A DNA stretch of 64,000 nucleotides, taken from the IMG/VR virus record IMGVR_UViG_3300028586_000750; one strand, 5' to 3'. Position numbers and translations under genes: made by a program. This stretch comes from a virus. This document shows, piece after piece, positions 4,633 through 63,514 of this stretch; position 1 is the first letter of the stretch; every line of letters begins with the position of its first letter. Below the pieces are notes generated by a model. It ran no database searches. It was not told the DNA's origin and saw nothing but the letters and a program-made list of their open reading frames with translations.

Positions 4633-5021
4633 GATGTTCTCCTAAGGCTATGGGAAAAGACTGTTCTTTTCTACTGAACTCAACTATACACATGGCTGGC
4701 AGGTAAAGCAACTAGTGGATTAAAAAAGTTGAACCCTTCACTTGGATAAATTTCCAGGTGAGGGGTTCAATAGTTTTTAAAGCACGAAGTTAGGGGCGCA
4801 GACCGTCGCAGTATGCCATGTAGTAACGGTGAAGGCTCTTGCCGTTCTCCGTAAGCTCGGGAACGCTAGCTGCCTTCATGGCCTTCCACTCTTGGAACGT
4901 CAGCATAATTTTATTCTCTTCCTGTTATTTGTTTAGTAGTGGTTGTTGAGATAAGGCTACCTCAATTTTGGTGTTGGTGCAAGCTTTTGGTGAAACTAAT
5001 TTTCCCGGTAGGACAGTTGGG

Positions 5022-5282
5022 TTACTCGGTGCGAACGCGAATTCGCGTTACAGCGAGGAAGAGGACACCGAAGAGGATGAGAGCGATGGGGAGAACGGTC
5101 CAACCGCTGGTGAAGCCCATGATGACACCGCTGACGATTGCGATGAACGGAAGCAGAGCCATGATGAAACCGAAGAGCATGATGAAAGGTGCCAGGATGA
5201 GGATGATAGCCATACCAGCCTTAGCCTTGTTACCGGTGAGAAGCGTGCGCTGGCCGTTACGGTGGGTGCGGTAGACGTTCAT
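5022..5282 (-). CDS. Two-TM membrane protein
   Basis: Long hydrophobic stretches; GGAGAACACC RBS. Confidence 0.7.
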   Translation of the reverse strand: MNVYRTHRNGQRTLLTGNKAKAGMAIILILAPFIMLFGFIMALLPFIAIVSGVIMGFTSGWTVLPIALILFGVLFLAVTRIRVRTE

Positions 5283-5379
5283 GGTGTTCTCCGTAGTCTA
5301 GGTGGGCTGGTGTTTCCTGCCCTGATGTTTTTAGTCTATGTGGTCACGGCAGGAAACGCAAGTTGTTTTTCCAAATTTT

Positions 5380-5694
5380 TTACCGGCTGGTGAGAATTTT
5401 CTTGTGAGCTTTAAGCATTGCTTCTGCGCGAGTGAGATTACCTTCGACCTGGCCAAGAACGAAGCTTCTATCATACGAGTTCCTACGAGCAGCATCCGTA
5501 TAAGGGTTAGCTTGTATCTTACCCTGCTGGGTTCCTGAACCTACAAGGAAACCGGCTGCGTAGCCTTCTTTACGTGCAGGACGAGTTTTGATGCAACGGG
5601 CAATGAGGTAGACAGTGGTAATGATGATTACGGCGATACCAACCATAGCGAATAGGTAACCCGTAAGAACTCCGTTTGACATTCGTTTCTCCAT
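5380..5694 (-). CDS. Membrane-anchored hypothetical protein
   Basis: N-terminal TM, then GYAAGF...YDRSFVLG; similar to 14870-15181. Confidence 0.7.
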   Translation of the reverse strand: MEKRMSNGVLTGYLFAMVGIAVIIITTVYLIARCIKTRPARKEGYAAGFLVGSGTQQGKIQANPYTDAARRNSYDRSFVLGQVEGNLTRAEAMLKAHKKILTSR

Positions 5695-5870
5695 ATCCTG
5701 GCGTAGCTTATTGATTGCAGTTTATATGTTATGACAATGAATAGTCAAGCTGTTTAGGAAGAAATATCCTATATTATTCTTGTCTTTTTGTGGACACAGT
5801 TTTGAAAAGATTTTGTGTCCATTTGGAGACAAGGGGTGCTTTTAGGTTTTCGTTGTGTTACAGTGAAACT

Positions 5871-6206
5871 ATGAACAAGTTCAGCGTTTACGTCCCGCTC
5901 ACTGGCAAGCGTGAGGCCCTCCTGTCTTACTTCCTGTCCGGAGCCAACTTCCTGTACAAGTTCGAGAACTACGTGTCCACGACTGAGTGCGATGTTTCCG
6001 CTACCGAAGAGGACGTGTCTGGTGTTGGTGGTGGCCTTGCTGCTCGTCTGATGCTTTCAGGCGAGCGTGAGCGTGACATGGAGGTTCATTCCGCTGATGA
6101 CGTTTACGAGGTCCGCGATGAGGAAAACGACCTTCTTGGATGGGAGGTCGTTGTTTACGAGAGCTTCTACGACGACAACATGGTTTTTGACTACGACCTT
6201 CTCTAA
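5871..6206 (+). CDS. Hypothetical protein (leaderless; paralog of 6869-7183)
   Basis: TACAGT-6nt-ATG; MNKFSVY...GWEVVVY. Confidence 0.75.
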   Translation: MNKFSVYVPLTGKREALLSYFLSGANFLYKFENYVSTTECDVSATEEDVSGVGGGLAARLMLSGERERDMEVHSADDVYEVRDEENDLLGWEVVVYESFYDDNMVFDYDLL

Positions 6207-6404
6207 ATAGCTCAACTTTTTAAAGTGCCCTTACTGCGGAACATGTAGTGAGGGCACTTCTGTTTTAGACAAACTATCTTGCTTCTTAAGAGTAGGTACT
6301 TTTCTTTTGGATAGTTCTGTACAAAAGGTTGCAACCGGTTGCAAGAACAGATATACTTGAATTATCAGGGAGGAAAAGCTTCCCTAAGAACTTAGGAGCA
6401 CATT

Positions 6405-6737
6405 ATGTCGGTTGTCACCCTTTCCTTGGTCATCCTTCCCGAAGAGCTTACAGAGTATCTTGACGAAGCGTCGATTTTAACTACTGATGAGAAGAAGGAA
6501 ATTCTTGATACCTTTAAGGACACTGAGCGAGTGTTCTTTACGGGTCAAGTTTCTAAGCTTCCCAATGCCACGTTTTCTCGCATGACTGGTGATGATGGAA
6601 TTAAGTATGATGTGATTGATTTCACCATCACTAGCCGTTATATCATTAGTGGTGAGTATTGGATTGAGGGCGACCGCTTTCGCATCAACCTCACACAGTT
6701 TACTCGTGACCTTTCTTCCAGTGTTTTGGGTCAGTGA
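6405..6737 (+). CDS. Hypothetical protein (paralog of 12460-12780)
   Basis: TAGGAG RBS; SRYII...FRINLTQF motif shared. Confidence 0.75.
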   Translation: MSVVTLSLVILPEELTEYLDEASILTTDEKKEILDTFKDTERVFFTGQVSKLPNATFSRMTGDDGIKYDVIDFTITSRYIISGEYWIEGDRFRINLTQFTRDLSSSVLGQ

Positions 6738-6868
6738 ATTTCATCCGCTGAAGTCTTAAAAAAGACTAAGTTTTTTAAAGCCCCACTGCATATAAGTTAT
6801 GTGCAGTGGGGCTTAGCTTATGGGAAAAGACACTTGATAAAACGCAGTCTTACTGCTATTGTGAGATT

Positions 6869-7183
6869 ATGATGAATAAGTTCAGTGTTTATATCCCAGT
6901 GCACGGGCAGAGAGATACCGTTGTTGCGCAGTTTGATGGGCGGCGCTCTGCGACCGTCCTTGACCACATTGTATCCTCACAGACTGCTGCTGCAAATAGT
7001 TCTGAGGCTGAGGTCTGTTCCATTGCCGAGGATTTTGCTTGGGCTAAGGCTTTGAGGTACCAGGGTGGGGGTCATAACGATATCCTTGAAGTTGATGGGG
7101 CTTACGAGTTATTTGACGACAAGTACGAGGACGGCCCTGTTGGATGGGAAGTCGTTCTGTACAGCGGAGTTTCCGAAGAGTAA
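6869..7183 (+). CDS. Hypothetical protein (leaderless; paralog of 5871-6206)
   Basis: TTGATA-17-TATTGT-6nt-ATG; MMNKFSVY...GWEVVLY. Confidence 0.75.
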   Translation: MMNKFSVYIPVHGQRDTVVAQFDGRRSATVLDHIVSSQTAAANSSEAEVCSIAEDFAWAKALRYQGGGHNDILEVDGAYELFDDKYEDGPVGWEVVLYSGVSEE

Positions 7184-7338
7184 CTAGCTTCTATTAAAAA
7201 TTGCGTGTGTTTGCTTCTAAGCGAAGTGAGTACACGCAATTTCTCTGTGATGAGTTATCCGTTTTTGGTTGCTTATTCCTGATGCATGTAGTAGGCTTTG
7301 TTCTATAAGCTTTTCACCTATTGAGAGAGTTGGATGTT

Positions 7339-7644
7339 ATGAAGGTTTTTGAGCGTGTCAATGGTCGTTGGACTATCACGGCTGACACACTTCGTATTGA
7401 GGAAGTGACTAAAAGCGCGGTCACCGGGCGTGAATATGCGACTACGCTTCTTAGCAACGGTAGAAGCGTCTACGTGATTTGTGAGAATGACACTCACCTG
7501 TACTTCTACACGAGCAAGGGTCGACGTGGCGTTCGCATTTCCCCTAACACTGTTCTTAACTTCTACGTGGACGGTGAACTAGTTGCTGAGGTTGACCACG
7601 AGTGGGCTAAGGAATTTGATGTTGTCCGTGAGCCTGTAGCATAA
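7339..7644 (+). CDS. Hypothetical protein
   Basis: MKVFERVNG...; terminator at about 7660-7697. Confidence 0.65.
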   Translation: MKVFERVNGRWTITADTLRIEEVTKSAVTGREYATTLLSNGRSVYVICENDTHLYFYTSKGRRGVRISPNTVLNFYVDGELVAEVDHEWAKEFDVVREPVA

Positions 7645-7773
7645 GGCACATAAGCCAAAGAGAGGCAGTTACCCTTTATAGGTAACTGCCTCTCTTCTTT
7701 GTATCTGGCACTAAGTGTTATAGGTATAAGGACGGACGTTTTTACTTAACTTTTCGCAGTATCGCTAAAGCCT

Positions 7774-8097
7774 CTACTGTGGGGTATCCGCACTACTGTC
7801 ACTTCTCACTCTTGAATGATTGAGGCTAGGAAGTTTTTGATTATGCAGAGGAAAATTAGGTTGACGCTCAAGATTACGTTTGTGTCGCTCTGCGTTCAAT
7901 TGACGAGCACGCGCATAACGGACGCGTTCAATTTTTAGATACTGCTCATGAAGTTCTGCTGCTACACGTAGTTTCTCTTGATGCCTATGCCAAATGTTTT
8001 TAACGACTAGGTACACTATGGCAAGCGCTAAAGAAATGACTATGACTTGGTAAGGGTAAGGATAGGCGTAGGTGGAAACGGATTGCGCTGTATCCAT
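7774..8097 (-). CDS. Single-TM hypothetical protein
   Basis: TM followed by a basic coiled-coil-like segment; abuts the stop of 8098-8238. Confidence 0.6.
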   Translation of the reverse strand: MDTAQSVSTYAYPYPYQVIVISLALAIVYLVVKNIWHRHQEKLRVAAELHEQYLKIERVRYARARQLNAERHKRNLERQPNFPLHNQKLPSLNHSRVRSDSSADTPQ

Positions 8098-10790: not shown

Positions 10791-11156
10791 TTAGTCAAGA
10801 TTGGGTTTGCTTCCCTTTTTTGCGTTACAGGGGCTACACATAGGGTCATAGTTCTCTAGTGCGTTCAATCCACCTTTGCTCTTAGGAACAATGTGGTCTT
10901 TGGTCATTAGTACAAGCTCTCCCTTTACATTCATTCCGTAAAGGTTAAGGTGCGGGGTAACTGTGAGGTCATGAGTTTCTAGGATGAACTGGGTACCCTT
11001 GATGCCGCATCTGACGCATACCGTTCCTTTGGTCTTAAAAAGGACTAGACGAGCACTGTTCTTTCTGAACGTACGACCGTCAGGGAGAGTTGCTTTTCCA
11101 CGGGTGTTCATGGCAGCAAAAACGTCAGCGGCTGAATAAGACGCTATCTGTATCAT
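10791..11156 (-). CDS. HNH endonuclease
   Basis: CVRC...KDHIVPKSKGG-x4-N-x4-CSPCNAKKG. Confidence 0.85.
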   Translation of the reverse strand: MIQIASYSAADVFAAMNTRGKATLPDGRTFRKNSARLVLFKTKGTVCVRCGIKGTQFILETHDLTVTPHLNLYGMNVKGELVLMTKDHIVPKSKGGLNALENYDPMCSPCNAKKGSKPNLD

Positions 11157-11540: not shown

Positions 11541-11698
11541 AAACTAGTCTTAAAAAAGACAACTTAATATAACGCAACATTCAGGTAGGTACGCTCTTGG
11601 GAAAAGACAAGAAAATACTTGCTTGACTGTTGCGTTTTTGTTTGCTGCGTGATAGCTTTAACTCATCAGCAAAACAACCCCAAACTTTGGAGAACAAA

Positions 11699-14171: not shown

Positions 14172-14339
14172 TTAGTGGCTGCGCACCTGCTTGAGGAAAG
14201 CTGCTGCTTGCGCATTTCCCTTACGAATTTCACGACGGCGAACACGACCGGGGTGGGAAAGGACCATGATGATGACAAGGATTGCAGTGGGCCATGCCAG
14301 GATGCTGACGAGCGAAGCAATAAGAGTGAGAATGTCCAT
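14172..14339 (-). CDS. Small single-TM protein
   Basis: AAGGAAAAGCTC-ATG; MDILTLIASLVSILAWP... Confidence 0.65.
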   Translation of the reverse strand: MDILTLIASLVSILAWPTAILVIIMVLSHPGRVRRREIRKGNAQAAAFLKQVRSH

Positions 14340-16303: not shown

Positions 16304-16449
16304 ATTTTACTTCTTTCTCTATTCATCTAGTATATCAAATCATCCACTATAAGGCAAGCTTATAATGCGGTCCTAAGTATATGCCTTTGGGAAAAGACAA
16401 AGCTTTAGCCTCTACCAAAATATTTTGGTAGAGGCTAAAGCTTTAGTGA

Positions 16450-17696: not shown

Positions 17697-17830
17697 TGGG
17701 AAAAGACGGTCCATCTGATGAAGAATCACTGTCCGGATCTAGATTCTTGCTTTCGTTTTTGACACTCAAAAACTTTGCCTGTTCAACAAGTAATGGCCCC
17801 ACCAGAATTAACTGGTGGGGCCATTACTTG
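17697..17830 (+). repeat. Duplicated non-coding composite module (second copy at 21391-21528)
   Basis: TGGGAAAAGAC, then CTGATGAAGRATCACTGTYCGGATCTAGATTCWTGCTTTCG, then AAAAACTTTG, then a CACCAG hairpin, in both copies. Confidence 0.8.
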
Positions 17831-21188: not shown

Positions 21189-21534
21189 GATGTTAAATCA
21201 ATCGGCGTTGAAGTGCTCGTTCTATGCTGCTTTGCTGTGCGAGAAACAGGGTTAAAAACTTTGGTCCTTTTTTAGACATGTCATGTTGCTTGATTTTGAA
21301 TGCTTTTTGGGGTAAGCTTAATACTGAACCAACCGGAGTTACACTACCCCTGCCATTTTATTCACAATATGGTCCTTGAAAGGTAGTAGATGGGAAAAGA
21401 CACTTCTAGCTGATGAAGGATCACTGTTCGGATCTAGATTCATGCTTTCGTTTTGTAGTGTGTTAAAAACTTTGATAGTCCCAACAAGTAATGGCCTCAC
21501 CAGAATTAACTGGTGAGGCCATTACTTGTTTAAT

Positions 21535-22726: not shown

Positions 22727-22915
22727 GATGTTCTCCCTGAAACTGTGTGGCTTGGGCTGTTCCCTTGCCGTTGGTTCAAGTATACACAGATGTGTCATGC
22801 TGTGCAACACGGTGAAGCAACAATTTCTAACTTATTTTGAAACGGTCTTGGGAAAAGACAAGCCTTAGGCCCTAGCTAAAAACTTAGCTAGGGCCTAAGG
22901 CTGAGGCGGTTGAAG

Positions 22916-25390: not shown

Positions 25391-25815
25391 GAGCTATATC
25401 CAAACGATTAGGTGGAAGCGAATAGCTTTACTCTATCCCACTGCAATGAGAAAAGTCAAGCTTAGACACGTTTTTGAGGAATTTAGCGTTCAAGCTTTCG
25501 CTCTGCGATTGCTGCAAGAATTGCGTCACTACGGCGAATAGCATTGTTATTACCGTTAGACTTGAAACCCATCTTAACCCGTGCAAAGAAGGTTTGTGGT
25601 TTACGGCAAAACCTGGTGAAGACAAGCGGCATGATTTTCCAAAGGATGTTGTAATTGACTATTAGATAAAGCTTACGTTATTTTCGGCTATAAAGCAACA
25701 ACCTTTTGGAAAAAGACGCAAAATTATAGGTTATTGCACCTGCTTTTTAGTTGCGAAAAAGCTCTAGGACGTGATACCTTTAGGTTATTCATCCACTTCT
25801 GAGTAAAGGCTAAAA

Positions 25816-26151: not shown

Positions 26152-26513
26152 TTAAAGATAAACTTTGGCCCTACACGAGATGAGTGTAGGGCCAAAGTTT
26201 TTAAGGCAAAACTAGAAGAAGCCCTCACTTAATTGTGAGGGCTTCTTCTAGTTTCCTAGCTGTTCCTTGTAGCTGATGTTCGCTGCGTTCTGCTTGCGAA
26301 CTCGGATGGACTTCTTAACGGGGGTGTTAGCCTCGTTCTTCTTGATTGCACGAGTTGCGTGCTTTCCCTTTCGCATAATTACAGTGTATCACAAGAATAA
26401 AGCTTCATGCAAACATCTATTGGGAAAAGACATGAGCCTCACCAGAATTAACTGGTGAGGCTCATATCTACTTTGAAGTGGTATAACTCTACAAGTTTTT
26501 AATTAGCGGAAGA

Positions 26514-27763: not shown

Positions 27764-28161
27764 GATGTTTCCTGTCTGTGTGATGTAGCGGGTGGCTGAT
27801 AAGACCAGCATACACATAAGTCCCATTCAAAGCAAACCATTTTTCTAAATATTTTCAGTTGGCATTGAGAGCCACAGTGTGATACAGTTCTTATATAGAG
27901 AAAACAAGACTACATCAAGTTCATGACTTGAAGCGCAAGCTTTAGTACGTTTCTTTGTAAGCTACCTTTCATCCCTTCGCCAATGTAGGGGTCTAGACAA
28001 GAGGGGTAAGTAGTGTGACACAGAGAACTGGCCAGGAACCTGTGTAGCTGGCTTAAAACCATTGGCGCGACTTATGGTTATGGGAAAAGACAATTTATTT
28101 TCCTTCACCCAATCAAAAGAAGCCCCTCACAACCAAGTGAGGGGCTTCTTCATGTTTAATG

Positions 28162-29952: not shown

Positions 29953-30189
29953 GATAACTACTTTCGTCGTGGTGAGCTTTGGCTTTTCCGCTGCCCTGTT
30001 GATTACAGCTTACACACTTAGATGGGCCAGTGCAACTCAAAAACAAGAAACTTTTCAGTTTTCTGACGATTGTTTAAGTAGCTTCAAATAACAAGCAAGA
30101 AAGACTAGCTTTTACCTGGTAACTGCAACCAACACTGGTATATGTACTGAAAATAGTGTATGCTATGGGTAAAGACATTTAAGGAAAAT

Positions 30190-31939: not shown

Positions 31940-32153
31940 ACGTTTCTTCCTTTTAGAAATCTGCTGTTACCGGTCCAAATTTTGATATGCAGTAATAGCT
32001 CTATCTATAATAGTACAAAGAACCGTTTTACCTAAGAATTTAAAGTAGCAATTGCTAATCAGTAGAGCCTCAGCTACACCATATGGGAAAAGACAAGACG
32101 ACTACATACAGAAAAACCCCACCAGTTATTGGTGGGGGTTTTCTGTATGTTCT

Positions 32154-33500: not shown

Positions 33501-33605
33501 GAGAACATCTTTCTGTGGAATGAACGATTTAATCCACTCTATCATAAGGTAATGGGAAAAGACAGGGTATTCACCAAACATTTGGTGAATACCCTGTCTT
33601 CAAAA

Positions 33606-34611: not shown

Positions 34612-34839
34612 TTAAGCCTCTACAAGGACAGGGTAATCGTTAAGGCGCATCTTTGCCTTGCTTTCAGTGAAAAGAGTTGCGCTTGTGAAAAGACCGAAAG
34701 AGTTCGGAATTGTGGCACGCATTGCGGGAATGTAATCACCCGACTTGAACGGGTAAAGCTGAGTGCCCATGAGCGTGTTACCGGCGTATACAGCGGAAAC
34801 ACCAGTGGGACCGTTGACAACAAAAACATTGTGAGACAT
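34612..34839 (-). CDS. Hypothetical protein
   Basis: AAGGA RBS; 75 aa. Confidence 0.65.
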   Translation of the reverse strand: MSHNVFVVNGPTGVSAVYAGNTLMGTQLYPFKSGDYIPAMRATIPNSFGLFTSATLFTESKAKMRLNDYPVLVEA

Positions 34840-35779: not shown

Positions 35780-35995
35780 TATTTTCCTTCTGTTGTAAAC
35801 GGATAGGTACATATACCATTATACGCCCCCTAAAGGGGCATGTCAACTAGCAACTATGGGAAAAGACACTTAATTCTAGCTAGTAAAGCTTGGGTTAAGT
35901 CCAGCCAAAATATGTTTTCGTTTAGACTTGCGTTTGCTAGCGAAACCTGTTAAGTTTCCCTTGTAACCACTTCCCGCTCACAAAAGGAACAAACC

Positions 35996-37101: not shown

Positions 37102-37237
37102 TTTTTACGAGAAAGCGGCCAATCGGTTAATCCTGGTTGGCCGCTTTCTCGTGTCTATGGGAAAAGACAAGCTGAATGTTCCCTTCAATATTCAGACAGA
37201 GTTGACACTAGGCAGAAAGAAGGGTTAGACTGTACCT

Positions 37238-38179: not shown

Positions 38180-38307
38180 GAATTAATGAGTGTGGCCCTT
38201 TACCTGATATCAGGTAAAGGGCCACACTCATTTTTATTACCTTTTCGTAATCAAAAACATCTAATTACGAAAAGGTAATAATGATTAGCTATTGGGAAAA
38301 GACATTA

Positions 38308-40093: not shown

Positions 40094-41788
40094 TTAACGT
40101 TGGGTCTTGTGAGTATTCGCGTGCTCTAAAAGCTCTGCTGCGTGAGCGCGACCAGTTTCACTGTTGCTCATACCAGATAGCATACGAGCTAATTCTTCAA
40201 GGCGGTCCTCTGTACTTAGCTGCGCAACGCTTGTTTCTGTGAATGTATCAGTGCTGCTCTTTTGTACACGCAAGTGGTTATCTGCATATGCTGCCACCTG
40301 AGGTAAGTGAGTGACAACAATTACTTGTGCTTCTGCTGCGAGGGAAGACAACCTTTTACCAATTTCAATAGCTGTAGCTCCACCAACTCCACTGTCTACC
40401 TCATCAAAAATGAACGTAGGCGTGATATCTGGGTTTGCTAGGACAACTTCTAAGGCAAGCATGATACGTGATAGTTCTCCACCGCTTGCTGCTTTATTGA
40501 TAGGACGAGCATTAGTTGCACCAGGCATTTTGAGCATGAAATTTACTTCATCTGCGCCTGTACTTGAAAAACTTCCTACGTTGATTTCAATGACTAGTTT
40601 GTTTCCAGCCATTGCTAGACCAGCGAGTTCTTTGTTCACTTCTTTGGATAGACGTGCTGCTGCTTCTGTCCTGATTTTTGTGACAATACCAGCATGTTCT
40701 TCAAGTTTTTTAGCTAGTTCAATAAATTGGCGATCTAGCTTCTCAACATTGTTTGCCTCAGGGTTGAGGTCTACTAGTTTTTCATCGCTTTTCTGCCAGT
40801 ATTCAATGACATCATCAAGGGTCACGCCATATTTTCTAACTAGGCGATTCAAATCAGCAAGACGTTCTTGGGCCTGGTTTAGACGGTAGATGCTGTCTCC
40901 ATCAATGTTGTCTAGGTAGCTGCTGAGAGCATCTTTAAGTTCTTGGGCTTCATCAAGGACAGTTTCAGCTTTGTCGGAAATCTTCTGCATTTCTGGGTCG
41001 TACTCTGCTGCACTTTGAAGAGCTTTGACTGCTACTACCAGTTGGGAAAAGACATTAGCTACTTCGTAATCTTCGGGGTCAATAGCTGCTAACGCTTCAA
41101 CTGCCGAATTTTTTAATGCATCCACGTTTGTTAGTGTTGCGATCTCTTGTTTAAGAAGATCATCTTCGTTGGGTGTTGGGTTTACTTCACTGATTTCAGC
41201 TACAGCTAAAGTCAAATCATCAAACTCTCGTTGACGAGCGGAGGCGTTAACTTTAACATCCTTGATAGTACGAGCTAGCTCTTTCCACTCTTGGTGAACT
41301 TCGCCGTATTTTTTTAATGCAGAAGTAAGCTTGTCTCCGGCATAGCGATCTAAAGCATCAAGCTGAGCAACGCTGCTTTTAAGACGAATTTGGTCTGACT
41401 GACCGTGAATGTTAACCAACCCGCCACCAATTTTTGCAAGAATGCTGGCTGGCGTAGTTTTTCCGCCTAATACTGCTCGGCTTTTGCCATCTGTGTTGAC
41501 GGTACGGTTAATGTACAACTGGTCATCTTCTACTACTGCGCCTGTTTCCAAAATGTCAGGCAATGAGTTTAATCCTGCGACGTTCCAACACCCTTCAATA
41601 GATGTGAACTCTTTACCGTGACGCACAATACTGGCGTCACTACGTTTACCTAGTAGCAACTGGACTGCGGTAAGCACCATTGTTTTACCTGCACCAGTTT
41701 CACCAGTGATAACGGTCAGCCCTTTCGTAAAAGGCAAACGGGTATGACTGATAACACCTAGGTTGTGAATTGAAATTTCTTCTAGCAT
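40094..41788 (-). CDS. recN: DNA repair protein RecN (SMC-like ATPase)
   Basis: TGETGAGKT Walker A, long coiled coil, ASGGELSR signature, IFDEVDSGVGG Walker B/D-loop, VTHLPQVAA H-loop; 564 aa. Confidence 0.93.
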   Translation of the reverse strand: MLEEISIHNLGVISHTRLPFTKGLTVITGETGAGKTMVLTAVQLLLGKRSDASIVRHGKEFTSIEGCWNVAGLNSLPDILETGAVVEDDQLYINRTVNTDGKSRAVLGGKTTPASILAKIGGGLVNIHGQSDQIRLKSSVAQLDALDRYAGDKLTSALKKYGEVHQEWKELARTIKDVKVNASARQREFDDLTLAVAEISEVNPTPNEDDLLKQEIATLTNVDALKNSAVEALAAIDPEDYEVANVFSQLVVAVKALQSAAEYDPEMQKISDKAETVLDEAQELKDALSSYLDNIDGDSIYRLNQAQERLADLNRLVRKYGVTLDDVIEYWQKSDEKLVDLNPEANNVEKLDRQFIELAKKLEEHAGIVTKIRTEAAARLSKEVNKELAGLAMAGNKLVIEINVGSFSSTGADEVNFMLKMPGATNARPINKAASGGELSRIMLALEVVLANPDITPTFIFDEVDSGVGGATAIEIGKRLSSLAAEAQVIVVTHLPQVAAYADNHLRVQKSSTDTFTETSVAQLSTEDRLEELARMLSGMSNSETGRAHAAELLEHANTHKTQR

Positions 41789-42782: not shown

Positions 42783-44102
42783 ATTTTTAATTTTAAAGCA
42801 GCCACAATTGCAGGCTTAGTAGCAGCATTGAGTTTAAGTTCAGCGTTACCAGCAATAGCGGCGGTAGAGACGAGCATTAATGTCAACGGTTCAGTGTTAT
42901 CAGGAGCCACATTAAACAGTAGTGTTTTTACTGTTGATGCTTCTACCCCTGCTGATACCGAAGACGTAAGATTTTATCTAGATGGCACGTACTTGGGAAA
43001 AGACAGTAGTGCGCCTTACTCTTGGCCAGTAAATACAACAGCAGGTAATCACGAATTAAAAATTCGTGTTGATGGGAAAACTAATTCTCGCGCAGAAGCA
43101 AAGTTTGTAGTTAAAGCAGGTTCTCCTGTAACACCTACTCCACAACCTTCCACTCCACCTGTTGTAACTCCACCCCCTACAGCGCCAACCCCAGTACCTG
43201 AACCTTCACAACCTGCACCTGGTAGCGCAGTTGTAAGCGTGTCCACAGCAGCGCAATTAGACACAGCCCTAAAAAATGCTACACCAGGGTCAACTATTTC
43301 ACTTGCAGATGGTAAATATGTAGGGAAGTTCATTGCTCCAAAAGATGGAACAAAAGACCAGCCTATTAATTTAGTGGGTTCTAGCAAAGCTGTTCTAACT
43401 ACAGATAGCCTTTCAAAAGGTTACGGCTTAAACATCACTGGTGATTACTGGAATGTCAAAGGAATTAGTGTAACAAAATCAGGTAAAGGTATTATGCTTG
43501 ACGGTTCTGTGGGTTCTGTAGTGGATAACGTTGACGTTGGAAACATTGGAGACGAAGGTGTTCATTTCCGCAAAAACAGTAGTGATGGAATAATCATGAA
43601 CTCAAAAATTCATGACACAGGTCTTGACTCACCTTCTTACGGTGAAGGCGTTTACATTGGAAGCGCAAAAAGTAACTGGGCTTCAATCATGGGTTCTTCT
43701 ACAACACCTGACAGAAGCGACCGCGTTGTAGTTAAAAACAACCAAATTTTTAACACAACCACAGAAGGTGTTGATGTTAAAGAAGGAACTGTTGATGGAA
43801 CAGTAACTGGTAACGTATTCACTAACTCTGGCTTCTCTGGTGCAAATTACGGCGACTCATGGGTTGACGTTAAAGGCAACAACTACACTATTTCTAATAA
43901 CAGTGGAAATGGAACTCTGTTGGATGCTTTCCAAGTTCACCAAGCTTTAGCTGGATGGGGAAACAACAACAAGTTCAGTAATAACAGCGCCACTGGTATT
44001 AAAGGTTACTTAGTCAGTGTACAAAAAGGCGTAACTGGCACTGTTGTATCTTGTCAAGACACGACAGCTAAATTGGGTCTGTCTAACGTTTCATGCTCAT
44101 AA
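42783..44102 (+). CDS. Exported protein: Ig-like domain, Pro/Thr linker, right-handed parallel beta-helix (polysaccharide lyase-like)
   Basis: VSTAAQL-x-x-AL-x-x-A-x-PG-x-x-I-x-LADG-x-Y opening and Asn/Gly-rich beta-helix repeats; signal peptide is complete only if the start is upstream of the track TTG at 42828 (ATT at 42783 after AAGGAG). Confidence 0.75.
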   Translation: MFNFKAATIAGLVAALSLSSALPAIAAVETSINVNGSVLSGATLNSSVFTVDASTPADTEDVRFYLDGTYLGKDSSAPYSWPVNTTAGNHELKIRVDGKTNSRAEAKFVVKAGSPVTPTPQPSTPPVVTPPPTAPTPVPEPSQPAPGSAVVSVSTAAQLDTALKNATPGSTISLADGKYVGKFIAPKDGTKDQPINLVGSSKAVLTTDSLSKGYGLNITGDYWNVKGISVTKSGKGIMLDGSVGSVVDNVDVGNIGDEGVHFRKNSSDGIIMNSKIHDTGLDSPSYGEGVYIGSAKSNWASIMGSSTTPDRSDRVVVKNNQIFNTTTEGVDVKEGTVDGTVTGNVFTNSGFSGANYGDSWVDVKGNNYTISNNSGNGTLLDAFQVHQALAGWGNNNKFSNNSATGIKGYLVSVQKGVTGTVVSCQDTTAKLGLSNVSCS

Positions 44103-44348: not shown

Positions 44349-44424
44349 GTAATTCCCTGACTTAAAGCAATGGGAAAAGACAAGCGCCTCACCAGTTAAT
44401 TCTGGTGAGGCGCTTGTCTTTGTG

Positions 44425-45559: not shown

Positions 45560-45689
45560 AAAAGACATAAAGCAAAAGCCCCAGTAAATTATACTGGGGC
45601 TTTTGCTTTATGTTAAGCTATTGGGAAAAGACACCTTGCTTTTATTGCTTAAAAATGTTATGCTTAAAGTTCGTAAATAGGAGATTTAT

Positions 45690-46689: not shown

Positions 46690-46809
46690 TAAAAGCTTTG
46701 GCTGTACGTAAACAACTACGTACAGCCAAAGCTTTTGGGAAAAGACATATAAAAATAGGGTGTTCTACCGAAAGTTGGTAGAACACCCTATTTGTTTAAA
46801 GCTTGGAGC

Positions 46810-47450: not shown

Positions 47451-47669
47451 AATAATGCCCTCGCCCTTGCTTTCACCGAAAAGATTGCTCTTAATCAGGC
47501 GGACATTTTCTCAGCTATTTACGCACCGTGGGGTAAAAGCTTATTACCGCGTAAGCAAAAGCAACTGCATGGGAAAAGACATATTTTTCTCATGCAGTTG
47601 CTTTTTTGTTCAATCATCGTTACGATAGGTAACACCGCAACATTCCCCCTTCAAACAAAGGCAAAACTC

Positions 47670-49035: not shown

Positions 49036-49214
49036 ACACTAAAACTTTGGGAGCACAGATACGATTATCTGTGCTCCCAAAGTTTTCTCTATATCAACAA
49101 GGTAATGGGAAAAGACACCTTAGTTATTGATTTGATTGAGGTTTCAGACATCAAGTTCTACAACCGTGAAAATAGGTTGTTGCTTTTTCGCTAGAAAACA
49201 GTTATAGTAGACCT

Positions 49215-50600: not shown

Positions 50601-50794
50601 GCGCTGGGAAAAGACACTGAGTAACCCCCTTGGCTAGATAATCTAGTCAAGGGGGTTACTTCTGTTACAGGGAAAACCAAAAAAGTTTTAAACTCAGCTT
50701 GCATCCACCAAAACCTTCTGATAGAGTTTACTTATACGCACAAACCGTGCACAACACTTTCGCCCTACTTTTAATAGGATAAGGAATTAGAACC

Positions 50795-52989: not shown

Positions 52990-53469
52990 ATGTCTAAGTC
53001 AACTGAGCCAGCTATTTTCGTTGATGTTCATTCATCTGGTGTGACTGATATTCTCGCTAAGTCTCCTCTTTTTGAGAAGACTGCAACTGTGACGGCTGTT
53101 CAGATTACTGAAGCAGAGCATGTTGTTACTGCTTTCGGTGATTTTATTGAGACTGAGCGTGATGCTGTTGCTGGTCAGTGGAAGGTTACTAACCCTGACG
53201 GTGAGCAGTACATTCTTGATGATGAGGTTTTCAAGGCTCGCTATAAGGCTTTGGGAAAAGACAAGTACCAGGCTATTGGCTTCATTCGTGCTACTAGTAA
53301 CCCTTGGGGTGTTCCCATTGAGATTACTGCACCTTGGGGTGAACCTCAGTTCGGTGATGAGGATTGCATCGTAGCTGTTTCTGTCCTTAATGGTGAACCT
53401 GTGTGGACTGACCGTTATATTATTGAGCGTAAGGCTTTTGAGAATACTTACGCTTCCGTTACTGCTTAA
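52990..53469 (+). CDS. Hypothetical protein, PGDYG-like
   Basis: GQWKVTNPDGEQY...F-x-ARY and WGEPQFG-x-x-DC-x-V recall the PGDYG family. Confidence 0.5.
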   Translation: MSKSTEPAIFVDVHSSGVTDILAKSPLFEKTATVTAVQITEAEHVVTAFGDFIETERDAVAGQWKVTNPDGEQYILDDEVFKARYKALGKDKYQAIGFIRATSNPWGVPIEITAPWGEPQFGDEDCIVAVSVLNGEPVWTDRYIIERKAFENTYASVTA

Positions 53470-53488
53470 TTAAGAAAGACTGACTATA

Positions 53489-54147: not shown

Positions 54148-54213
54148 CTTTAGTAGGCAATTGGAGTATGCTTTAGCTATACCACTTCATCCCTACTTTA
54201 AGGACTAACTTTA

Positions 54214-54600: not shown

Positions 54601-54857
54601 TTAGCTAAAAAGTGTGTGGCCCGTTTTCTTCCTAGGAAACGGGCCACACCTATATGGGAAAAGACATGCACCATAACTGCGTTAACCAAAAGCTACGCAT
54701 ATATTACTTTTGTTTAGAGCGGGTTAGCTATACAAACGAGCACAAATGATAATAAAAATGAGCGTTCTTTACTTTAGCGAATATTTTGATACCAACTTCC
54801 CGATGCTTACAAGTAAGCAAGTCGCTAGAAGTTCTTTTAAGTTCACAGGAATGAACC

Positions 54858-56006: not shown

Positions 56007-56132
56007 CCTTTAAAAACTGCGGTGGCAACTTATTACAAGTTACCACCGCAGTTTTCATTTCTATCTAGTCTTTATTGCTGATGAGAAGGCTAGTTAAGGA
56101 TGGGAAAAGACATGTTATGGTAAGCTTAAGAT

Positions 56133-56495: not shown

Positions 56496-56615
56496 GTTGG
56501 TTTTAGGTTTGCTTTTTGATAAAAGTGGGAGTATGCTTTAACTGTAAGCAAGAAAGACCGAGGTTACTTGAACGCTCGGCATTAAACAAAAACAACAAGA
56601 AAGAAGTACCACGTA

Positions 56616-56948
56616 ATGAAGAAAGCAACTTACCTCAAGAAGCTTGCAATTGCGCAGGCTAAGGTAACTGATGCAACTACTGTAGCTGACCTCAAAAAGC
56701 GCAAAGCTGCAAAACGTGCACTTGAACTTTTCTGGGAAAAGGCTGCTATTGCTTGGATGGAAAAGAACATTTGGCACAAGCCTTACGCTGAATGGCTTGC
56801 AGGTTGGCAGTCGGCTAAGTTCAACTTCACCCTAAACCCTGGTGGTAAGGTGACTGTTGCAACTTTTGGTCACGACTTCTCGTGGGCACGTGGAACTACA
56901 ACGGAGCCTATGAAAGAATATGTCATCCCTAAGGCTGTTCTACTTTAA
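56616..56948 (+). CDS. Basic hypothetical protein
   Basis: Behind leader hairpin copy 1. Confidence 0.7.
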   Translation: MKKATYLKKLAIAQAKVTDATTVADLKKRKAAKRALELFWEKAAIAWMEKNIWHKPYAEWLAGWQSAKFNFTLNPGGKVTVATFGHDFSWARGTTTEPMKEYVIPKAVLL

Positions 56949-57708: not shown

Positions 57709-57872
57709 TACAAAGCAAATATCCCCACCAGAACTAACTGGTGGGGATATTTGCTTTTAGGCTATGGGAAAAGACAACATGTAACGTCTGAGTTCTGAAG
57801 TTCCTTAAGATCCTCAAGATCGCTTTAATATAGAAAAGCGATTAGTTTGGTGTTTGTTAAAAACTTTGGCAG

Positions 57873-59227: not shown

Positions 59228-59310
59228 ACAAAATAGGTAAGGCCCCACCAGAATTAACTGGTGGGGCCTTGCCTATTTTAGGACTACATGGTAATGGGAA
59301 AAGACAAGCT

Positions 59311-60507: not shown

Positions 60508-60642
60508 TATTTCCTTAATAAAGTTGTATTATAACCTTACCAGAAAACACTTAGAATATCAATCTTTATATGAGTTAAGGACGATGGGAAAAGACAAAGG
60601 TGAGTTGCAGTTCAGTTCAACTGCAACTCACCTTTGTAGCTG

Positions 60643-61670: not shown

Positions 61671-61748
61671 TCTTAAATAAGTATCGCCTCTCACCTAAAA
61701 CTAGGTGAGAGGCGATACTTATTTGTAGGCTATGGGAAAAGACGGATG

Positions 61749-62228
61749 TTAGCTTTCTTGCGTCGTCATTTTGCCGGTCATTGAAATGTACAATACGCCA
61801 AAGCCGTTACCGACAAACTTGTATTTTTCCACTCCATCTGCTGTCAAACCTACCTCAGGGGCAATAGTTACATTTCTACCTAAGATGAAGTAGTTATTCC
61901 ATGAGCCGCTAACAGTAATAGAGGTATTTATGTCAGTTTTGACTATTTTGTATTTTGCGAGTGAAGTAGCATCTTGTGTATTACCAGCCGCATAACCATA
62001 GACGGTATCTGCGGTAGGGTTCTTTACCAAGTAGGTAATGACGTTAGTATTAGTGTTTTTAACGTCAGACTTAACACCTGCAATTAAAGCAGCTTTTTGT
62101 TGATTGGCAAAAATAGGGATAGCGATAGCTGCTAGAATACCAATAATTACTACAACAATCATAAGTTCAATAAGAGTGAAACCCTCTTCTGAACCTGTTG
62201 CTCGTAAAGTGCGTAGTTTTTCTACCAT
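61749..62228 (-). CDS. Type IV major-pilin-sized prepilin
   Basis: GAGG RBS; MVEKLRTLRATGSEEG|FTLIELMIVVVIIGILAAIAIPIFANQQ; 159 aa. Confidence 0.9.
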   Translation of the reverse strand: MVEKLRTLRATGSEEGFTLIELMIVVVIIGILAAIAIPIFANQQKAALIAGVKSDVKNTNTNVITYLVKNPTADTVYGYAAGNTQDATSLAKYKIVKTDINTSITVSGSWNNYFILGRNVTIAPEVGLTADGVEKYKFVGNGFGVLYISMTGKMTTQES

Positions 62229-62342
62229 GTTAACCTCGAAGTATTTGTTATCTTCATTATCTGGTTTCTCTGTGTTTAGCTCGGGCCTTACCAAAAGATG
62301 ATAATGTATCTTATCGTTTCTTATCTTTTGCATAATGTATGG

Positions 62343-62391
62343 GTGTCTCAATAATGAGACATTCTATGAAACTATCTCATTATTGAGACAC
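62343..62391. promoter_or_regulatory. 17-bp inverted repeat (candidate operator) between divergent genes
   Basis: GTGTCTCAATAATGAGA-15nt-TCTCATTATTGAGACAC; abuts a TTGCGT -35. Confidence 0.7.
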
Positions 62392-62454
62392 TTGCGTTGG
62401 CATAACAACATATGCTATTCTTAAATCCTTAATCTTCATTTAGAATGGAACACT

Positions 62455-62850
62455 ATGGTTGCTTTTATTGCACAAATTATTATCTCTTTCGATCCGCTGC
62501 GCGCTTGGGTCAACAAGAAGCCAAACAAGAGCGCATATGTTCTTTTAGCTCTTAACGTGGTGGCTTTCATCCTAAGTTTTGCCCTACTTTCTAGTGGCTC
62601 TTGGCCTACTATTAACTGGCTAACTCTATTTGGGCTTGTTGGGTTGGTAGCTTCAATTCTTTGGCTTGGAGCTAACCTAGCTAATCTTTATGCTGTAGGC
62701 GCTTTTGATGGTCTAGTGACACGTTATGGCGTATTCGGTAAGCGAGTACAAGAGGAAGTTGTTTTCCAGCGTATCCAGCAAAACACTGTACGTGAAGAAA
62801 TTCGTGGCAATGGAAAAGACGACAAAGCATTAGAACACCTAATTGGCTAA
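62455..62850 (+). CDS. Membrane protein (paralog trio, copy 1)
   Basis: DP-x-x-x-W N-terminus plus two TM. Confidence 0.7.
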   Translation: MVAFIAQIIISFDPLRAWVNKKPNKSAYVLLALNVVAFILSFALLSSGSWPTINWLTLFGLVGLVASILWLGANLANLYAVGAFDGLVTRYGVFGKRVQEEVVFQRIQQNTVREEIRGNGKDDKALEHLIG

Positions 62851-62960
62851 TTGAAGAAACCCTCTCTAGATATTCAGAGAGGGTTTCTTTTTGAGTGATT
62901 ATATGATAGGCTCAATGGGTAAAGACATTATTAATTGCAACTTATTGATTGGAAAAAATC

Positions 62961-63398
62961 ATGACCCAGCTTTTTGCCAAATTTCTTGTCCTTTTTGACC
63001 CTATCGTTGACTGGGCTGACCGTGGCGATACGGACGCCCGTAAATACTTCTCGTTCTCTGTGCTGTACTTGGTGCTCACAGCTATTTTTGTTGTAATAGC
63101 TAATCTATTTGGAATGCCAGAAATGAACTGGGGAACAGGTCTTAGTGGTCTAGCTTTCCTTATCTTCGGAATTATGAGCTTTGGGGCTATGCTTTGGGCT
63201 TGCCTAGAGTTCTTCAACTCGAACCGCTGGTATTCTATTTGGGACGCAACAGGTGGAGCTATCAGCAACAAGGTTGATAAGGCCAAGAATGAAGTCCGCA
63301 ACCAGAAGCGTGCCAGCCAGGACGAAGCAATTACCCATTCGGTTGCTCTATACGACCCTTCGGCTTCTCGTCGTGAAGACATTGAGTACATGCGTTAA
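62961..63398 (+). CDS. Membrane protein (paralog trio, copy 2)
   Basis: FLVLFDPIVDW...two TM...DIEYMR. Confidence 0.75.
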   Translation: MTQLFAKFLVLFDPIVDWADRGDTDARKYFSFSVLYLVLTAIFVVIANLFGMPEMNWGTGLSGLAFLIFGIMSFGAMLWACLEFFNSNRWYSIWDATGGAISNKVDKAKNEVRNQKRASQDEAITHSVALYDPSASRREDIEYMR

Positions 63399-63514
63399 CC
63401 ACTAGTTACAAAAACACCCTCTTTTTCGGAAGAGGGTGTTTCTTTTTAGGTACAGGTGTGATAGGCTAAATGGGTAAAGACATTTACTGACAAAAACTTA
63501 TTGATTGGAAAATC

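Follow-up and report, generated by a model that had tools for sequence, protein, structure and literature searches.

A short DNA word confined to one strand of a phage-like element, and its resemblance to sites of strand-specific nicking in phages T5 and tf

Why would a short DNA word recur throughout a region in which genes run in both directions, and yet always be found on the same strand? This question is raised by a stretch of 64,000 nucleotides (the window), which is part of a ~790-kb circularly assembled, phage-like element. When both strands of the 64-kb window were counted, TGGGAAAAGAC was found 29 times, exclusively on the + strand, which reproduces both the number and the positions in the original prediction. 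The variant TGGGTAAAGAC is present three times, also on the + strand (30166, 62916, and 63471), bringing the ratio between the strands to 32:0; as claimed before, neither form occurs on the - strand within the window. Read from the - strand, the word is TTTTCCCAT. In shuffled sequence, TGGGAAAAGAC had 0.09 matches on average and 1 at most, in agreement with the chance expectation of far below one.

With a tolerance of one mismatch, 36 matches were found in the window, every one of them on the + strand (Table 1). The ratio of + to - strand matches is 29:0 without mismatches, 7:0 with one, 10:11 with two, and 95:68 with three. Thus, the strand bias is gone at two mismatches, which indicates a sharply defined word, as expected of a tight protein site. 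The core can be written as W-TGGGAAAAGAC-A, i.e., 11 invariant bases followed by a nearly invariant 3' A, 12-13 nt in all. Its information content is ~23 bits, to which a weak upstream TA(A)GGCTA is added, and an inverted-repeat core is absent from it.

In four strain variants, no differences were found in 252 columns of the core, vs. 65 in 1,264 columns (5.1%) of the flanks, and SNPs directly abut the invariant core. Purifying selection preserves the word. The same word and polarity were also found in relatives. One relative, with a RecN 79% identical to the one encoded here, contains two exact and additional near copies with the same polarity relative to RecN, and another, with a RecN 63% identical, has three exact copies on the same strand relative to RecN and none on the opposite strand. 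The word is kept despite a difference in GC content (35-38% in the relatives vs. 45% here), at a density of only one copy per 4-7 kb. At the place equivalent to the copy within RecN, a relative carries the one-mismatch form TGGGAAAGGAC, which makes a Leu codon of the Phe codon (F to L) where the protein is variable; the RecN-internal copy is counted here as apparent selection on the word within coding sequence.

According to crude gene calls made in the analysis, 28 of the 32 copies are intergenic. The three copies expected in coding sequences (41043, 42994, and 53252) were found there, and the one at 33553 additionally overlaps a doubtful ORF start. The flanking genes are oriented ++ at 12 copies, -- at 8, convergently at 7, and divergently at 1, with four copies being intragenic. 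Only one of 15 divergent spacers holds a copy, vs. seven of 16 convergent ones. Usually, the word is located 50-130 nt past a stop codon, just outside a terminator hairpin, in either gene orientation. The earlier observation that copies usually lie by such hairpins holds as an association: a hairpin of at least nine perfect pairs lies within 40 nt of at least 16 of the 32 copies, a lower bound since the strict hairpin finder misses some, vs. 28% of random intergenic positions. The word is a DNA-level signal with a polarity that is set by the molecule and is independent of neighbouring transcription, unlike that of L5 stoperators. In this general respect, the original prediction stands, and its interpretation as a whole is partly supported.

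The copies are on average 1,897 bp apart (median 1,499, range 555-4,790), close to the one per 2 kb estimated before, and the array occupies a block of small genes, with 2, 1, 4, 3, 5, 6, 4, and 7 copies in successive segments of 8 kb from the left of the window. Spacing is somewhat regular (CV 0.54; P = 0.036 vs. random intergenic picks), which lends moderate support to the proposed match with the scale of Okazaki fragments; the lower density in the relatives does not.

Table 1. Exact, variant, and one-mismatch copies of the word in the window
Position	Strand	Form	Context
4651..4661	+	exact	between - genes; 5' leader, 18 nt from start codon of - gene 4480-4632
6821..6831	+	exact	++ spacer; terminator hairpin before, sigma-70-like promoter after
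11598..11608	+	exact	++ spacer
14254..14264	+	one mismatch, TGGGAAAGGAC	
16388..16398	+	exact	-- spacer; 21-bp hairpin abutting 3' side
17697..17707	+	exact	-- spacer; homology with site 21391 starts precisely at word
21391..21401	+	exact	-- spacer; pairs with site 17697
22849..22859	+	exact	19-bp hairpin abutting 3' side
25707..25717	+	one mismatch, TGGAAAAAGAC	
26421..26431	+	exact	-- spacer; abuts hairpin
28081..28091	+	exact	-- spacer; hairpin 24 nt away, 3' side
30166..30176	+	variant TGGGTAAAGAC	TATGCT 1 nt before; RBS/start of + gene 30190-30498 12 nt after
32084..32094	+	exact	-- spacer
33553..33563	+	exact	3' end part of 19-bp hairpin; overlaps doubtful ORF start
34684..34694	+	one mismatch, TGTGAAAAGAC	adjoins small hairpin
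35857..35867	+	exact	divergent (-+) spacer, sole copy in such context
37158..37168	+	exact	++ spacer; hairpin before
38293..38303	+	exact	convergent spacer; - gene stop 3 nt away; right edge of 4.2-kb block missing from relative
41043..41053	+	exact	within RecN (- strand gene); codons N-V-F-S-Q
42994..43004	+	exact	within + strand beta-helix gene; read L-G-K-D
44371..44381	+	exact	convergent spacer; 3' half pairs into 20-bp hairpin
45622..45632	+	exact	++ spacer; hairpin one side, promoter TTGCTT-17-TATGCT other
46736..46746	+	exact	convergent spacer; hairpins both sides
47570..47580	+	exact	loop of terminator-like hairpin
49106..49116	+	exact	++ spacer; hairpin 19 nt before
50605..50615	+	exact	stop codon 4 nt before, hairpin after; relative: TGTGAAAAGACA at matching place
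53252..53262	+	exact	within + strand gene; read L-G-K-D
54655..54665	+	exact	++ spacer; hairpin 5 nt before
56101..56111	+	exact	++ spacer
56733..56743	+	one mismatch, TGGGAAAAGGC	within + strand gene
57765..57775	+	exact	convergent spacer; hairpin 7 nt before
59295..59305	+	exact	convergent spacer; - gene stop 4 nt away
60585..60595	+	exact	-- spacer; abuts hairpin
61733..61743	+	exact	convergent spacer; hairpin 8 nt before
62916..62926	+	variant TGGGTAAAGAC	TGaTAGGCT (extended -10-like) 3 nt before; + gene 33 nt after
63471..63481	+	variant TGGGTAAAGAC	arranged like site 62916; the two units are tandem paralogues

In the examined parts of the element, no capsid or terminase genes were seen, and it may not be a virus; a Replic_Relax marker gene is also characteristic of plasmid-like 'Inocle' elements. 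About 3-4.5 kb to the left of the window, a 1.85-kb non-coding, hairpin-rich stretch is found where both the GC and the AT skew flip. This region is likely the replication origin (the presumed origin or end region). Within the window, the skew declines from +0.23 at the left to ~0, and it reaches up to +0.47 in a relative. Copies set in 8-9 kb rightward of the flip and are on the G/T-rich strand, which also carries the word in both relatives, and the copy-free first 8-9 kb (16 kb in a relative) form the zone of strongest skew. The earlier suggestion to look for a polarity switch at an origin was thus followed in part: the flip in skew was found, and the ~39 kb to the left of the flip contain no copy on either strand. 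At least locally, this one-sided array is a poor fit to signals that are symmetric between replichores, such as Chi or KOPS. The skew flip is adjoined by the gene for a 598-aa winged-helix protein, which is conserved in contigs of 0.5-1.0 Mb. Its winged helix matches MarR proteins with Z scores of 8-9, it contains a PD..ExE..K motif, and matches to Pfam Replic_Relax were obtained for six of 25 homologues. This family is classed with the PD-(D/E)XK nucleases and has been linked to the replication of plasmids and the relaxation of DNA (PMC3424549). Within the window, a gene for a small HNH nuclease (10791-11156) is 61% conserved in a relative; phage HNH enzymes often have nicking activity (PMC3017599).

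Of known signals, the word most resembles the sites in phages T5 and tf at which one particular strand is nicked. Tentatively, W-TGGGAAAAGAC-A may be a cis-acting recognition site for strand-specific nicking of the + strand. A sequence-specific protein of the element would then read the word on one particular strand, i.e., an element-encoded nuclease would recognise the asymmetric 12-13-bp site and cut only the strand bearing the word. The resulting nicks would create swivel or entry points every ~1-2.5 kb among the small, individually transcribed genes by the presumed origin or end region. Candidate nickases are the Replic_Relax-family protein by the skew flip and the HNH nuclease, and the nicks might relieve torsional stress between transcription units or serve in DNA packaging, entry, or replication restart. 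The nicking, the identity of the enzyme, and the purpose of the nicks are all inferred. The rarity of the word in divergent spacers and its commoner presence in convergent ones, beyond terminators, fit a lesion that is kept out of transcribed DNA. In phage tf, experiments have demonstrated nicks at all 14 TACTRTGMC sites, which are retained in relatives (PMC3517423). Our re-count of this motif in tf gave a ratio of 14:0 between top and bottom strand; the sites are dense, at intervals of 1.0-2.6 kb, in the left arm with its small genes, and are present also in the oppositely transcribed arm. Against nicking, known systems have 4-14 sites in genomes of 40-120 kb vs. 32 copies in 64 kb here, and a + strand nick at the RecN copy would hit the template strand of this - strand gene. 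Furthermore, neither the association with hairpins nor the moderately regular spacing is explained by nicking alone.

Both of these features would suit single-strand priming sites, although we consider this function unlikely. A primase or RNA polymerase would read the word on exposed ssDNA and start the complementary strand, with the + strand being, rightward of the flip, the lagging-strand template or a displaced strand, the hairpins staying free of SSB, and the 11 invariant bases plus the 3' A serving as primer template and cryptic nucleotide. The word is indeed on the G/T-rich strand, which is expected to be single-stranded longest, here and in both relatives; the array starts beside the skew flip and the non-coding hairpin-rich region, spacing is on a 1-2.7-kb scale, and at least half of the copies adjoin or lie close to long hairpins, with one in a loop. 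Placement beside hairpins recalls G4-type ssi signals and mitochondrial OL, which are likewise strand-specific, although ssi signals are structures of 50-100 nt. Kilobase spacing is also shared with the primase sites of the T7 5'-GTC-3' family. However, no primase is known to require a 12-nt site; the primases of T7 and T4 and DnaG use 3-5 nt. The earlier argument that the word resembles the T7 GTC core proved weak: T7 primase specificity lies 5' of GTC, whereas the conserved bases of the word lie 3' of it, and GTC is on the - strand, although, judging by the skew, the lagging-strand template on this side is the + strand. Also the lack of a - strand mirror array in the ~39 kb left of the flip, the absence of copies where the skew is strongest, and the low density in the relatives argue against priming.

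The position of the copies at transcription-unit borders, just past terminators, would also be expected of an asymmetric docking site for a regulator or architectural protein acting as insulator or roadblock, a possibility that seems quite unlikely. Co-orientation would be needed for head-to-tail assembly or for a one-sided block of a loop-extruding SMC-type motor. The ~23 bits of information, the weak upstream motif, and the purifying selection on the core agree with such a site, and the stoperators of Cluster A mycobacteriophages (L5 gp71; 13 bp, asymmetric) similarly occur in dozens of copies in short intergenic spacers. However, their orientation tracks transcription, whereas that of the word does not. 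A simple operator or roadblock gives no cause for a 32:0 polarity across both gene orientations, and the three in-gene copies are hard to account for.

The strict co-orientation on the G-rich strand is reminiscent of Chi (RecBCD/AddAB) and KOPS/SRS (FtsK/SpoIIIE), over-represented polar words on leading strands that are read by machines moving directionally along DNA. The word could thus tame a RecBCD/AddAB-type nuclease entering at one end, or orient an FtsK-type pump in entry, packaging, or segregation. The occurrence of copies within genes as well as spacers, the conservation across relatives, and the presence of an own RecN gene on the element are in line with such a polar guide, which we nevertheless find improbable. 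The Chi and KOPS words known so far have a length of 5-8 nt, are located for the most part within genes, and change strands at origin and terminus. The word found here has 12 nt, is mainly intergenic, and is not mirrored within ~39 kb left of the flip, and its density is lowest beside the flip.

Just as improbable is a function as a one-stranded promoter or start site for the host polymerase with a sigma factor of the element, or for an element-specific polymerase, where transcripts without a + gene downstream would meet a two-way terminator or yield short RNAs. At all three TGGGTAAAGACA variants, TAGGCT or TATGCT (in two cases with TGn) precedes the word by 1-3 nt, and a + strand gene follows after 12-33 nt; a TANNNT hexamer is present 1-3 nt upstream of 11 of the 32 copies vs. 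~2 expected. Copies in -- contexts mostly have a hairpin 0-80 nt after them; at sites 17697 and 21391, homology extends from the word onward over ~135 nt to the terminator, with a compensatory change in the stem, and a sigma-70-family gene is located left of the skew flip. However, about half of the copies would be unproductive, yet they are perfectly conserved, and four would send antisense RNA into genes. In addition, positions -8 to -40 upstream of the word contain <0.3 bit, without a conserved -35 or other block, and many of the genes downstream have an ordinary sigma-70-like promoter between themselves and the word.

Very improbable, finally, is a border of gene cassettes, where gain, loss, or swapping of modules at the word would keep one orientation: like integron attC sites and T4-type PeSL cassettes, the copies are co-oriented at small-module borders in an array with a defined start, here near the distinctive non-coding region, the two-copy module (17697/21391) begins exactly at the word, and, of six blocks present in the window only and not in the relative with the 79% identical RecN, four have a copy within 100 nt of the right edge and none of the left edge, but the empty junctions of the relative contain neither a copy nor a remnant of the word, six indel or replacement breakpoints at 1-13 kb in the strain variants miss the three copies there, the inverted-repeat core of attC and tyrosine-recombinase sites is absent, no integrase was seen adjoining the array (neither its 322-aa nor its 598-aa neighbour matches a recombinase), and, unlike PeSL, 12 bp is too short for homologous exchange.

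Among other known repeated words, the DUS of Neisseria and the USS of Haemophilus are similar in length (9-12 nt), frequency (one per 1-2 kb), and frequent location by terminators, with a type IV pilin-rich genome as a further likeness, but they occur in both orientations, whereas the word strictly keeps a single direction and is limited to one region. The nick sites, or localized single-strand interruptions, of Pseudomonas phage tf (5'-TACT/RTGMC-3'), of phiKMV-like phages, and of T5/BF23 have in common with it a short asymmetric consensus on one strand. Apart from the number of sites, differences are the length of the word (12-13 nt vs. 9 in tf), the status of the nicks (demonstrated in tf, proposed here), the nature of the ~790-kb element, which may not be a virus, and the location of the copies mostly in spacers beside terminators, tf sites being often in genes or at gene edges. 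Like the word, the tf sites are independent of the direction of transcription, reach their highest density towards one end, in the arm of small genes, and are kept at similar places in relatives (PMC3517423).

In the 64-kb window, 29 copies of the 11-mer TGGGAAAAGAC are present, every one of them on the + strand, as against a mean of 0.09 copies in dinucleotide-preserving shuffles, which bears out the original prediction of about 29 copies restricted to the + strand. When one mismatch was allowed, 36 matches were found, again on the + strand only, and these include three times the variant TGGGTAAAGAC, which is counted as a copy of the word, giving 32 copies. A count on both strands, originally proposed for the whole genome, was made over the window and gave no copies on the - strand at zero (29:0) or one mismatch (7:0), whereas the ratio between + and - strand matches was 10:11 at two and 95:68 at three mismatches. 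Thus, the word is sharply defined. In the one-strand test as used for the nick (sci) sites of phages, i.e., sites of localized single-strand interruptions, the window scores 32:0. A position-by-position count of the 32 copies yielded W-TGGGAAAAGAC-A as the core, with A (20/32) or T (10/32) before the initial T and A (29/32) after the final C, and a weak TA(A)GGCTA directly upstream. Twelve to 13 positions are informative in this count, which revealed no information outside -8 to +12 and no symmetry within or around the core. The copies are on average 1,897 bp apart (median 1,499; range 555-4,790), and their spacing is somewhat more even than that of random spacer picks (CV 0.65 for the intergenic copies, P = 0.036; CV 0.54 when the genic copies are added). 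Searches of known RNA families gave no match at the copies, a literature search for the word itself returned unrelated primers only, and searches on polar phage motifs gave nothing on such a word.

Genes were called with a self-trained codon model combined with a Shine-Dalgarno score, and the 131 genes obtained in the window match the calls that public contigs of this element display. Twelve copies are located in spacers between + strand genes (++), eight between - strand genes (--), seven in convergent spacers and one in a divergent spacer, and four overlap called genes. In all, 7 of the 16 convergent and 1 of the 15 divergent spacers are occupied. The claim that the polarity follows the chromosome and not transcription was confirmed, as the word keeps to the same strand in ++ and -- spacers and within genes on either strand. 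Moreover, ten + strand copies are present between 16 and 36 kb, where nearly all genes are on the - strand; hence, word polarity is independent of transcription. The original prediction of three copies within coding sequences also stands, and the number of intergenic copies, put at 26 of the 29 exact copies before, is 28 of 32 by our calls. In the ++ and -- spacers, the word typically lies 50-130 nt beyond the stop codon of the gene reading towards it, just past the terminator hairpin and ahead of the next promoter. At least half of the copies have a hairpin of at least 9 perfect pairs no more than 40 nt away, vs. 28% of random intergenic positions; the word had been described as usually lying beside a terminator hairpin.

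Other explanations of the repetition were rejected. The word is not a shared protein start (M-G-K-D, encoded by ATG/TTG-GGA-AAA-GAC), since the frames from the overlapping ATG or TTG are only 5-35 codons long in 27 of the 32 copies; the five copies with longer frames include the two that are located in + strand genes. The reverse complement, TGTCTTTTCC, constitutes the T-run of some - strand terminators, but about half of the copies are placed otherwise, and the word is, therefore, not a terminator component. Nor is it part of an extended repeat or MITE, since conservation stops at -8 to +12 and the flanks are without general homology. Two sites, 17697 and 21391, form a module with homology from the exact first base of the word over ~135 nt to a terminator, comprising ~55 conserved nt (CTGATGAAG...GATTC) followed by a hairpin whose stem shows a compensatory change from C-G to T-A. 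This module, which has no match in Rfam, may be a small + strand RNA. Long terminator-like palindromes in the window share a common core, CCCCACCAG/CTGGTGGGG, with locus-specific outer arms, and this core is also found at a convergent junction in the relative with a RecN 79% identical to that of the window. The sequence CTGGTGG in this palindrome family corresponds to seven of the eight bases of E. coli Chi.

Four strain variants, which are 83-97% identical to the window across the aligned stretches, indels included, have all 21 comparable copies intact. The 252 core columns are free of differences, whereas the ±30-nt flanks contain 65 in 1,264 columns, and SNPs directly abut the core; the nominal P of 2e-6 for this comparison is optimistic, because the strain variants are related to one another. 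The word and its polarity are also kept in more distant relatives of the element. In the 79% relative (GC 38%), two exact and several near copies are present in ~30 kb, all in one polarity relative to RecN as in the window, and a relative at 63% RecN identity (GC 35%) contains, in 21.7 kb, three exact copies of TGGGAAAAGAC(A/G), each on the matching strand, while the opposite strand has none. No copy was found in a relative at 51%. In both relatives that carry it, the word is on the G-rich strand. Two word positions are orthologous between the window and the 79% relative. The copy in RecN, reading N-V-F-S-Q, is a one-mismatch copy reading N-V-L-S-Q in the relative, whilst RecN proteins further off differ throughout this stretch, and behind the homologue of gene 50073-50600 the relative has a one-mismatch version of the copy that follows this gene in the window. 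These sequence comparisons clearly point to purifying selection on the word, which survives a 10-point GC shift among the relatives. Thus, the feature is real, under selection and polar relative to the DNA molecule. The small-gene region itself is highly plastic, with six blocks of the window missing from the otherwise collinear gene order of the 79% relative, and the conserved backbone includes RecN, a cREC_REC protein, a metallophosphatase and a SpoU methylase.

Coordinates of features in the window and in L145, a public contig stretch left of the window
Feature	Position	Strand	Remark
Word copy inside coding sequence	41043	+	RecN; gene on - strand
Word copies inside coding sequence	42994, 53252	+	+ strand genes
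TGGGTAAAGAC variants of the word	30166, 62916, 63471	+
Two-copy module	17697-17831, 21391-21530
Second one-way word, GACGGAC(A/G)TTTT	2203, 7731, 10677, 13580, 14816, 19533, 24772, 31889	+	left half of the window only
Blocks found in the window only	30499-33149, 34089-38307, 42643-44424, 44701-45689, 46005-49214, 51407-56615		vs. 79% relative
Palindromes (examples)	32117-32137, 57712-57757, 59239-59270
HNH endonuclease gene	10791-11156	-	121 aa
Rfam tRNA match	30774-30898	-	37.8 bits, spanning 125 nt; not called by ARAGORN
Gene of 598-aa protein	L145:16532-18328	-	window orientation
Gene-free stretch	L145:19334-21188		1.85 kb
Near copy TGGGTAAATAC	L145:19375	+	left edge of gene-free stretch
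Near copy TGGGAAAACAG	L145:19449	+	left edge of gene-free stretch

A gene-free stretch rich in hairpins and repeats is located ~3-4.5 kb left of window position 1, the distance depending on the strain. It is a candidate origin or, alternatively, a candidate junction of genome ends, and near copies of the word are found at its left edge. Both GC and AT skew change sign at this stretch. Left of the flip, the GC skew of the + strand is as low as -0.26 and its AT skew as high as +0.3, whilst right of it the GC skew rises up to +0.3 and the AT skew is strongly negative. The skew decays over ~35 kb on either side regardless of gene direction, which is unusual for ordinary replichores. At window positions 1-8000, the + strand is extremely G+T-rich (GC skew +0.23), with the mirror image left of the flip. 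The 617-kb contig of the 79% relative (Ga0540644_0000004, 617,315 bp) starts in the same skew zone, and the GC skew of its first 4 kb amounts to +0.42 to +0.47 in window orientation.

The array of words is one-sided with respect to this flip. Its first copy lies ~8-9 kb to the right (in the relative, 15.9 kb separate it from the start of the contig), and 2, 1, 4, 3, 5, 6, 4 and 7 copies are found in the successive 8-kb segments of the window. In the ~39 kb left of the flip, there is no copy with zero or one mismatch on either strand, vs. 32 within 60 kb rightwards. Thus, the switch in polarity at an origin that the original prediction had proposed to look for did not appear, as there is no mirrored - strand set in these ~39 kb. 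A second one-way word, GACGGAC(A/G)TTTT, occurs eight times on the + strand and never on the - strand of the window, and most of its copies are preceded by G or GG.

Immediately left of the gene-free stretch, a protein of 598 aa is encoded that has a disordered, proline-rich N-terminal half and is conserved among contigs 0.5-1.0 Mb in length. A fold search confidently assigned it a winged helix (Z 8-9 against MarR-type proteins), its PD..ExE..K pattern is invariant, and 6 of its 25 homologues match the Pfam family Replic_Relax. This family, a marker gene family of giant 'Inocle' elements, has been placed in the PD-(D/E)XK nucleases and tied to plasmid replication and DNA relaxation (PMC3424549). 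The fold searches confirmed the winged helix only. For the nuclease half, Foldseek gave just weak matches (E about 0.003-0.02) to chains that contain nucleases, namely Can2, YaeQ and FokI, and a wide fold search gave no match; hence, the nuclease assignment rests on the Pfam family and the sequence motif. Further leftwards, a sigma-70-family gene, a DNA methyltransferase and SIR2 are found. A complete type IV pilus operon (PilM/O, MshE/PilB-like, PilT-like, PilC) and a complete Tad operon (CpaF, TadB/C, TadE, RcpC) are located 10-42 kb left of the window (contig stretches L146, L163 and L164), with at least ten pilin genes alongside. Thus, the machinery for the pilin paralogues of the window is present in the same element.

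The RecN of the window recurs without a single change on public contigs as long as 788 kb, and its relatives at 50-79% identity come from contigs measuring 617-728 kb. The ENA contig ERZ27250822 k141_903752, 791,061 bp long, terminates at window position ~63,977, a region that is internal in the JGI contig Ga0540624_0000004 of 787,832 bp. Hence, the element is ~790 kb in size and assembles as a circle or circular permutation. Several independent public assemblies stop at this position, which lies in tandem pilin genes with near-identical N-termini; the stop is a repeat-caused break and not a genome end. Most genes of the element are small and without a family match, and some match PHROGs. Since neither capsid nor terminase genes were seen in the ~110 kb examined, "phage-like" is an assumption. 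A phage collection contained no megablast match, and tblastn matches of RecN in it were only 30-34% identical. Protein scans of IMG/VR revealed no close relative, a 14-mer scan of IMG/VR gave, among the matches listed, single chance matches only, and a JGI metagenome scan with a pilin query found nothing. Among the GTDB species genomes, there was no close RecN, with Companilactobacillus (~31%) as the only match. The element belongs to a very large (~0.8 Mb) family that is essentially undescribed.

As to its function, the analysis leads us to propose tentatively, at considerably less than an even chance, that the word is a site of strand-specific nicking. If one strand were cut just outside the terminators, RNA polymerase would not run into the break, which could then serve as a swivel between independently transcribed units; a strand-specific cut would thus provide a reason for the placement of the word outside terminators. 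Candidate nucleases are the Replic_Relax-type 598-aa protein at the flip and a stand-alone HNH protein of 121 aa with a CxxC...CxxC zinc motif, which is 61% identical to the product of a gene in the corresponding region of the relative. HNH enzymes of phages often nick (PMC3017599).

Priming on single-stranded DNA, for which the word would lie on the exposed strand, beside hairpins and at kilobase spacing, is rather unlikely. It is also doubtful that the word is a dedicated start site for complementary-strand synthesis, i.e., an 11-nt primer template with a cryptic 3' base every ~2 kb, on a strand that would be left single-stranded as replication or transfer moves outwards from the origin-like region of an extrachromosomal element of ~0.8 Mb. 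If so, this would be the first replicon with lagging-strand starts hard-wired by a long specific word. The original prediction noted a resemblance of the opposite strand to the core of a T7-type primase site, which requires 5'-GTC-3' on the lagging-strand template and specificity 5' of it. However, GTC is on the - strand, whereas the skew, from which alone fork direction is derived, makes the + strand the lagging-strand template, and the conserved bases are 3' of GTC; the proposal is, therefore, weak. Asymmetric docking of a protein at the word is unlikely, and a CTCF-like one-way barrier to an SMC-type motor would be a bold reading.

A guide sequence like Chi or KOPS has a low probability. 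The polarity of the array agrees with such a role, but the strand should then switch with replication direction, and no mirrored set exists in the ~39 kb left of the flip. Furthermore, Chi and KOPS are words of 5-8 nt and mostly genic, unlike the largely intergenic word with its 12-13 informative positions. A promoter is similarly improbable. The three TGGGTAAAGAC variants are located 1-3 nt past TAGGCT or TATGCT and 12-33 nt ahead of + strand genes, a two-way terminator usually follows the word directly in -- spacers, and the homology between sites 17697 and 21391 begins at the word and ends at a terminator with a compensatory stem change. However, there is no conserved upstream block, no -35 or -10 hexamers at fixed spacing and no information upstream of -8; a TANNNT hexamer is found just upstream in only ~11 of the 32 copies, many downstream genes are separated from the word by ordinary sigma-70-like promoters, and about half of the copies would drive nothing productive, although their conservation is perfect. 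The border of a cassette is highly improbable: although the right edge of four of the six window-only blocks is within 100 nt of a copy, the left edge is in none, six strain-level breakpoints at 1-13 kb miss all three copies there, the empty junctions in the 79% relative contain neither a copy nor a remnant of the word, no imperfect inverted repeat (R''-L''/L'-R') as in an integron attC is present in or around the core, and the neighbours of the array start gave no recombinase match. Explanations outside the six readings hold the remaining probability.

In the early-gene blocks of phages, most one-way junction words are inseparable from promoters because all genes there point one way. In the window, genes are oriented in both directions while the word keeps a single orientation, which isolates a signal at the level of the DNA strand from transcription and connects this signal with an abrupt skew flip beside a conserved gene of nuclease type. 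As a single 12-mer, the word offers a ready handle for finding its reader protein by pull-down, nick mapping or footprinting. If the sites serve for priming or are recognised by a motor instead of being nicked, the mechanism would be new. Localized nicking is known from phages of 40-120 kb and, to our knowledge, has been without explanation since the work on T5 in the 1960s. If the word is nicked, this phenomenon would reach to giant elements, and a testable purpose for it would be suggested by where the sites lie, namely between transcription units.

Among known systems, the stoperators of Cluster A mycobacteriophages have an orientation that follows transcription, whereas that of the word does not, and the unlikeness to those of L5 noted in the original prediction is upheld. 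The closest likeness to strand-specific nicking is offered by the Pseudomonas phage tf, in which 14 nicks were mapped experimentally within 5'-TACT/RTGMC-3', all in the top strand, at sites that are kept similarly placed in relatives (PMC3517423). Our re-count in the deposited tf sequence gave 14 sites, with the top strand carrying all of them. They are 0.7-2.6 kb apart along the left small-gene arm and sparser beyond, with two in the oppositely transcribed arm and several exactly at gene borders. Like the word of the window, the tf site is short and asymmetric, confined to a single strand, indifferent to transcription, conserved in relatives and concentrated in a region of small genes near a landmark.
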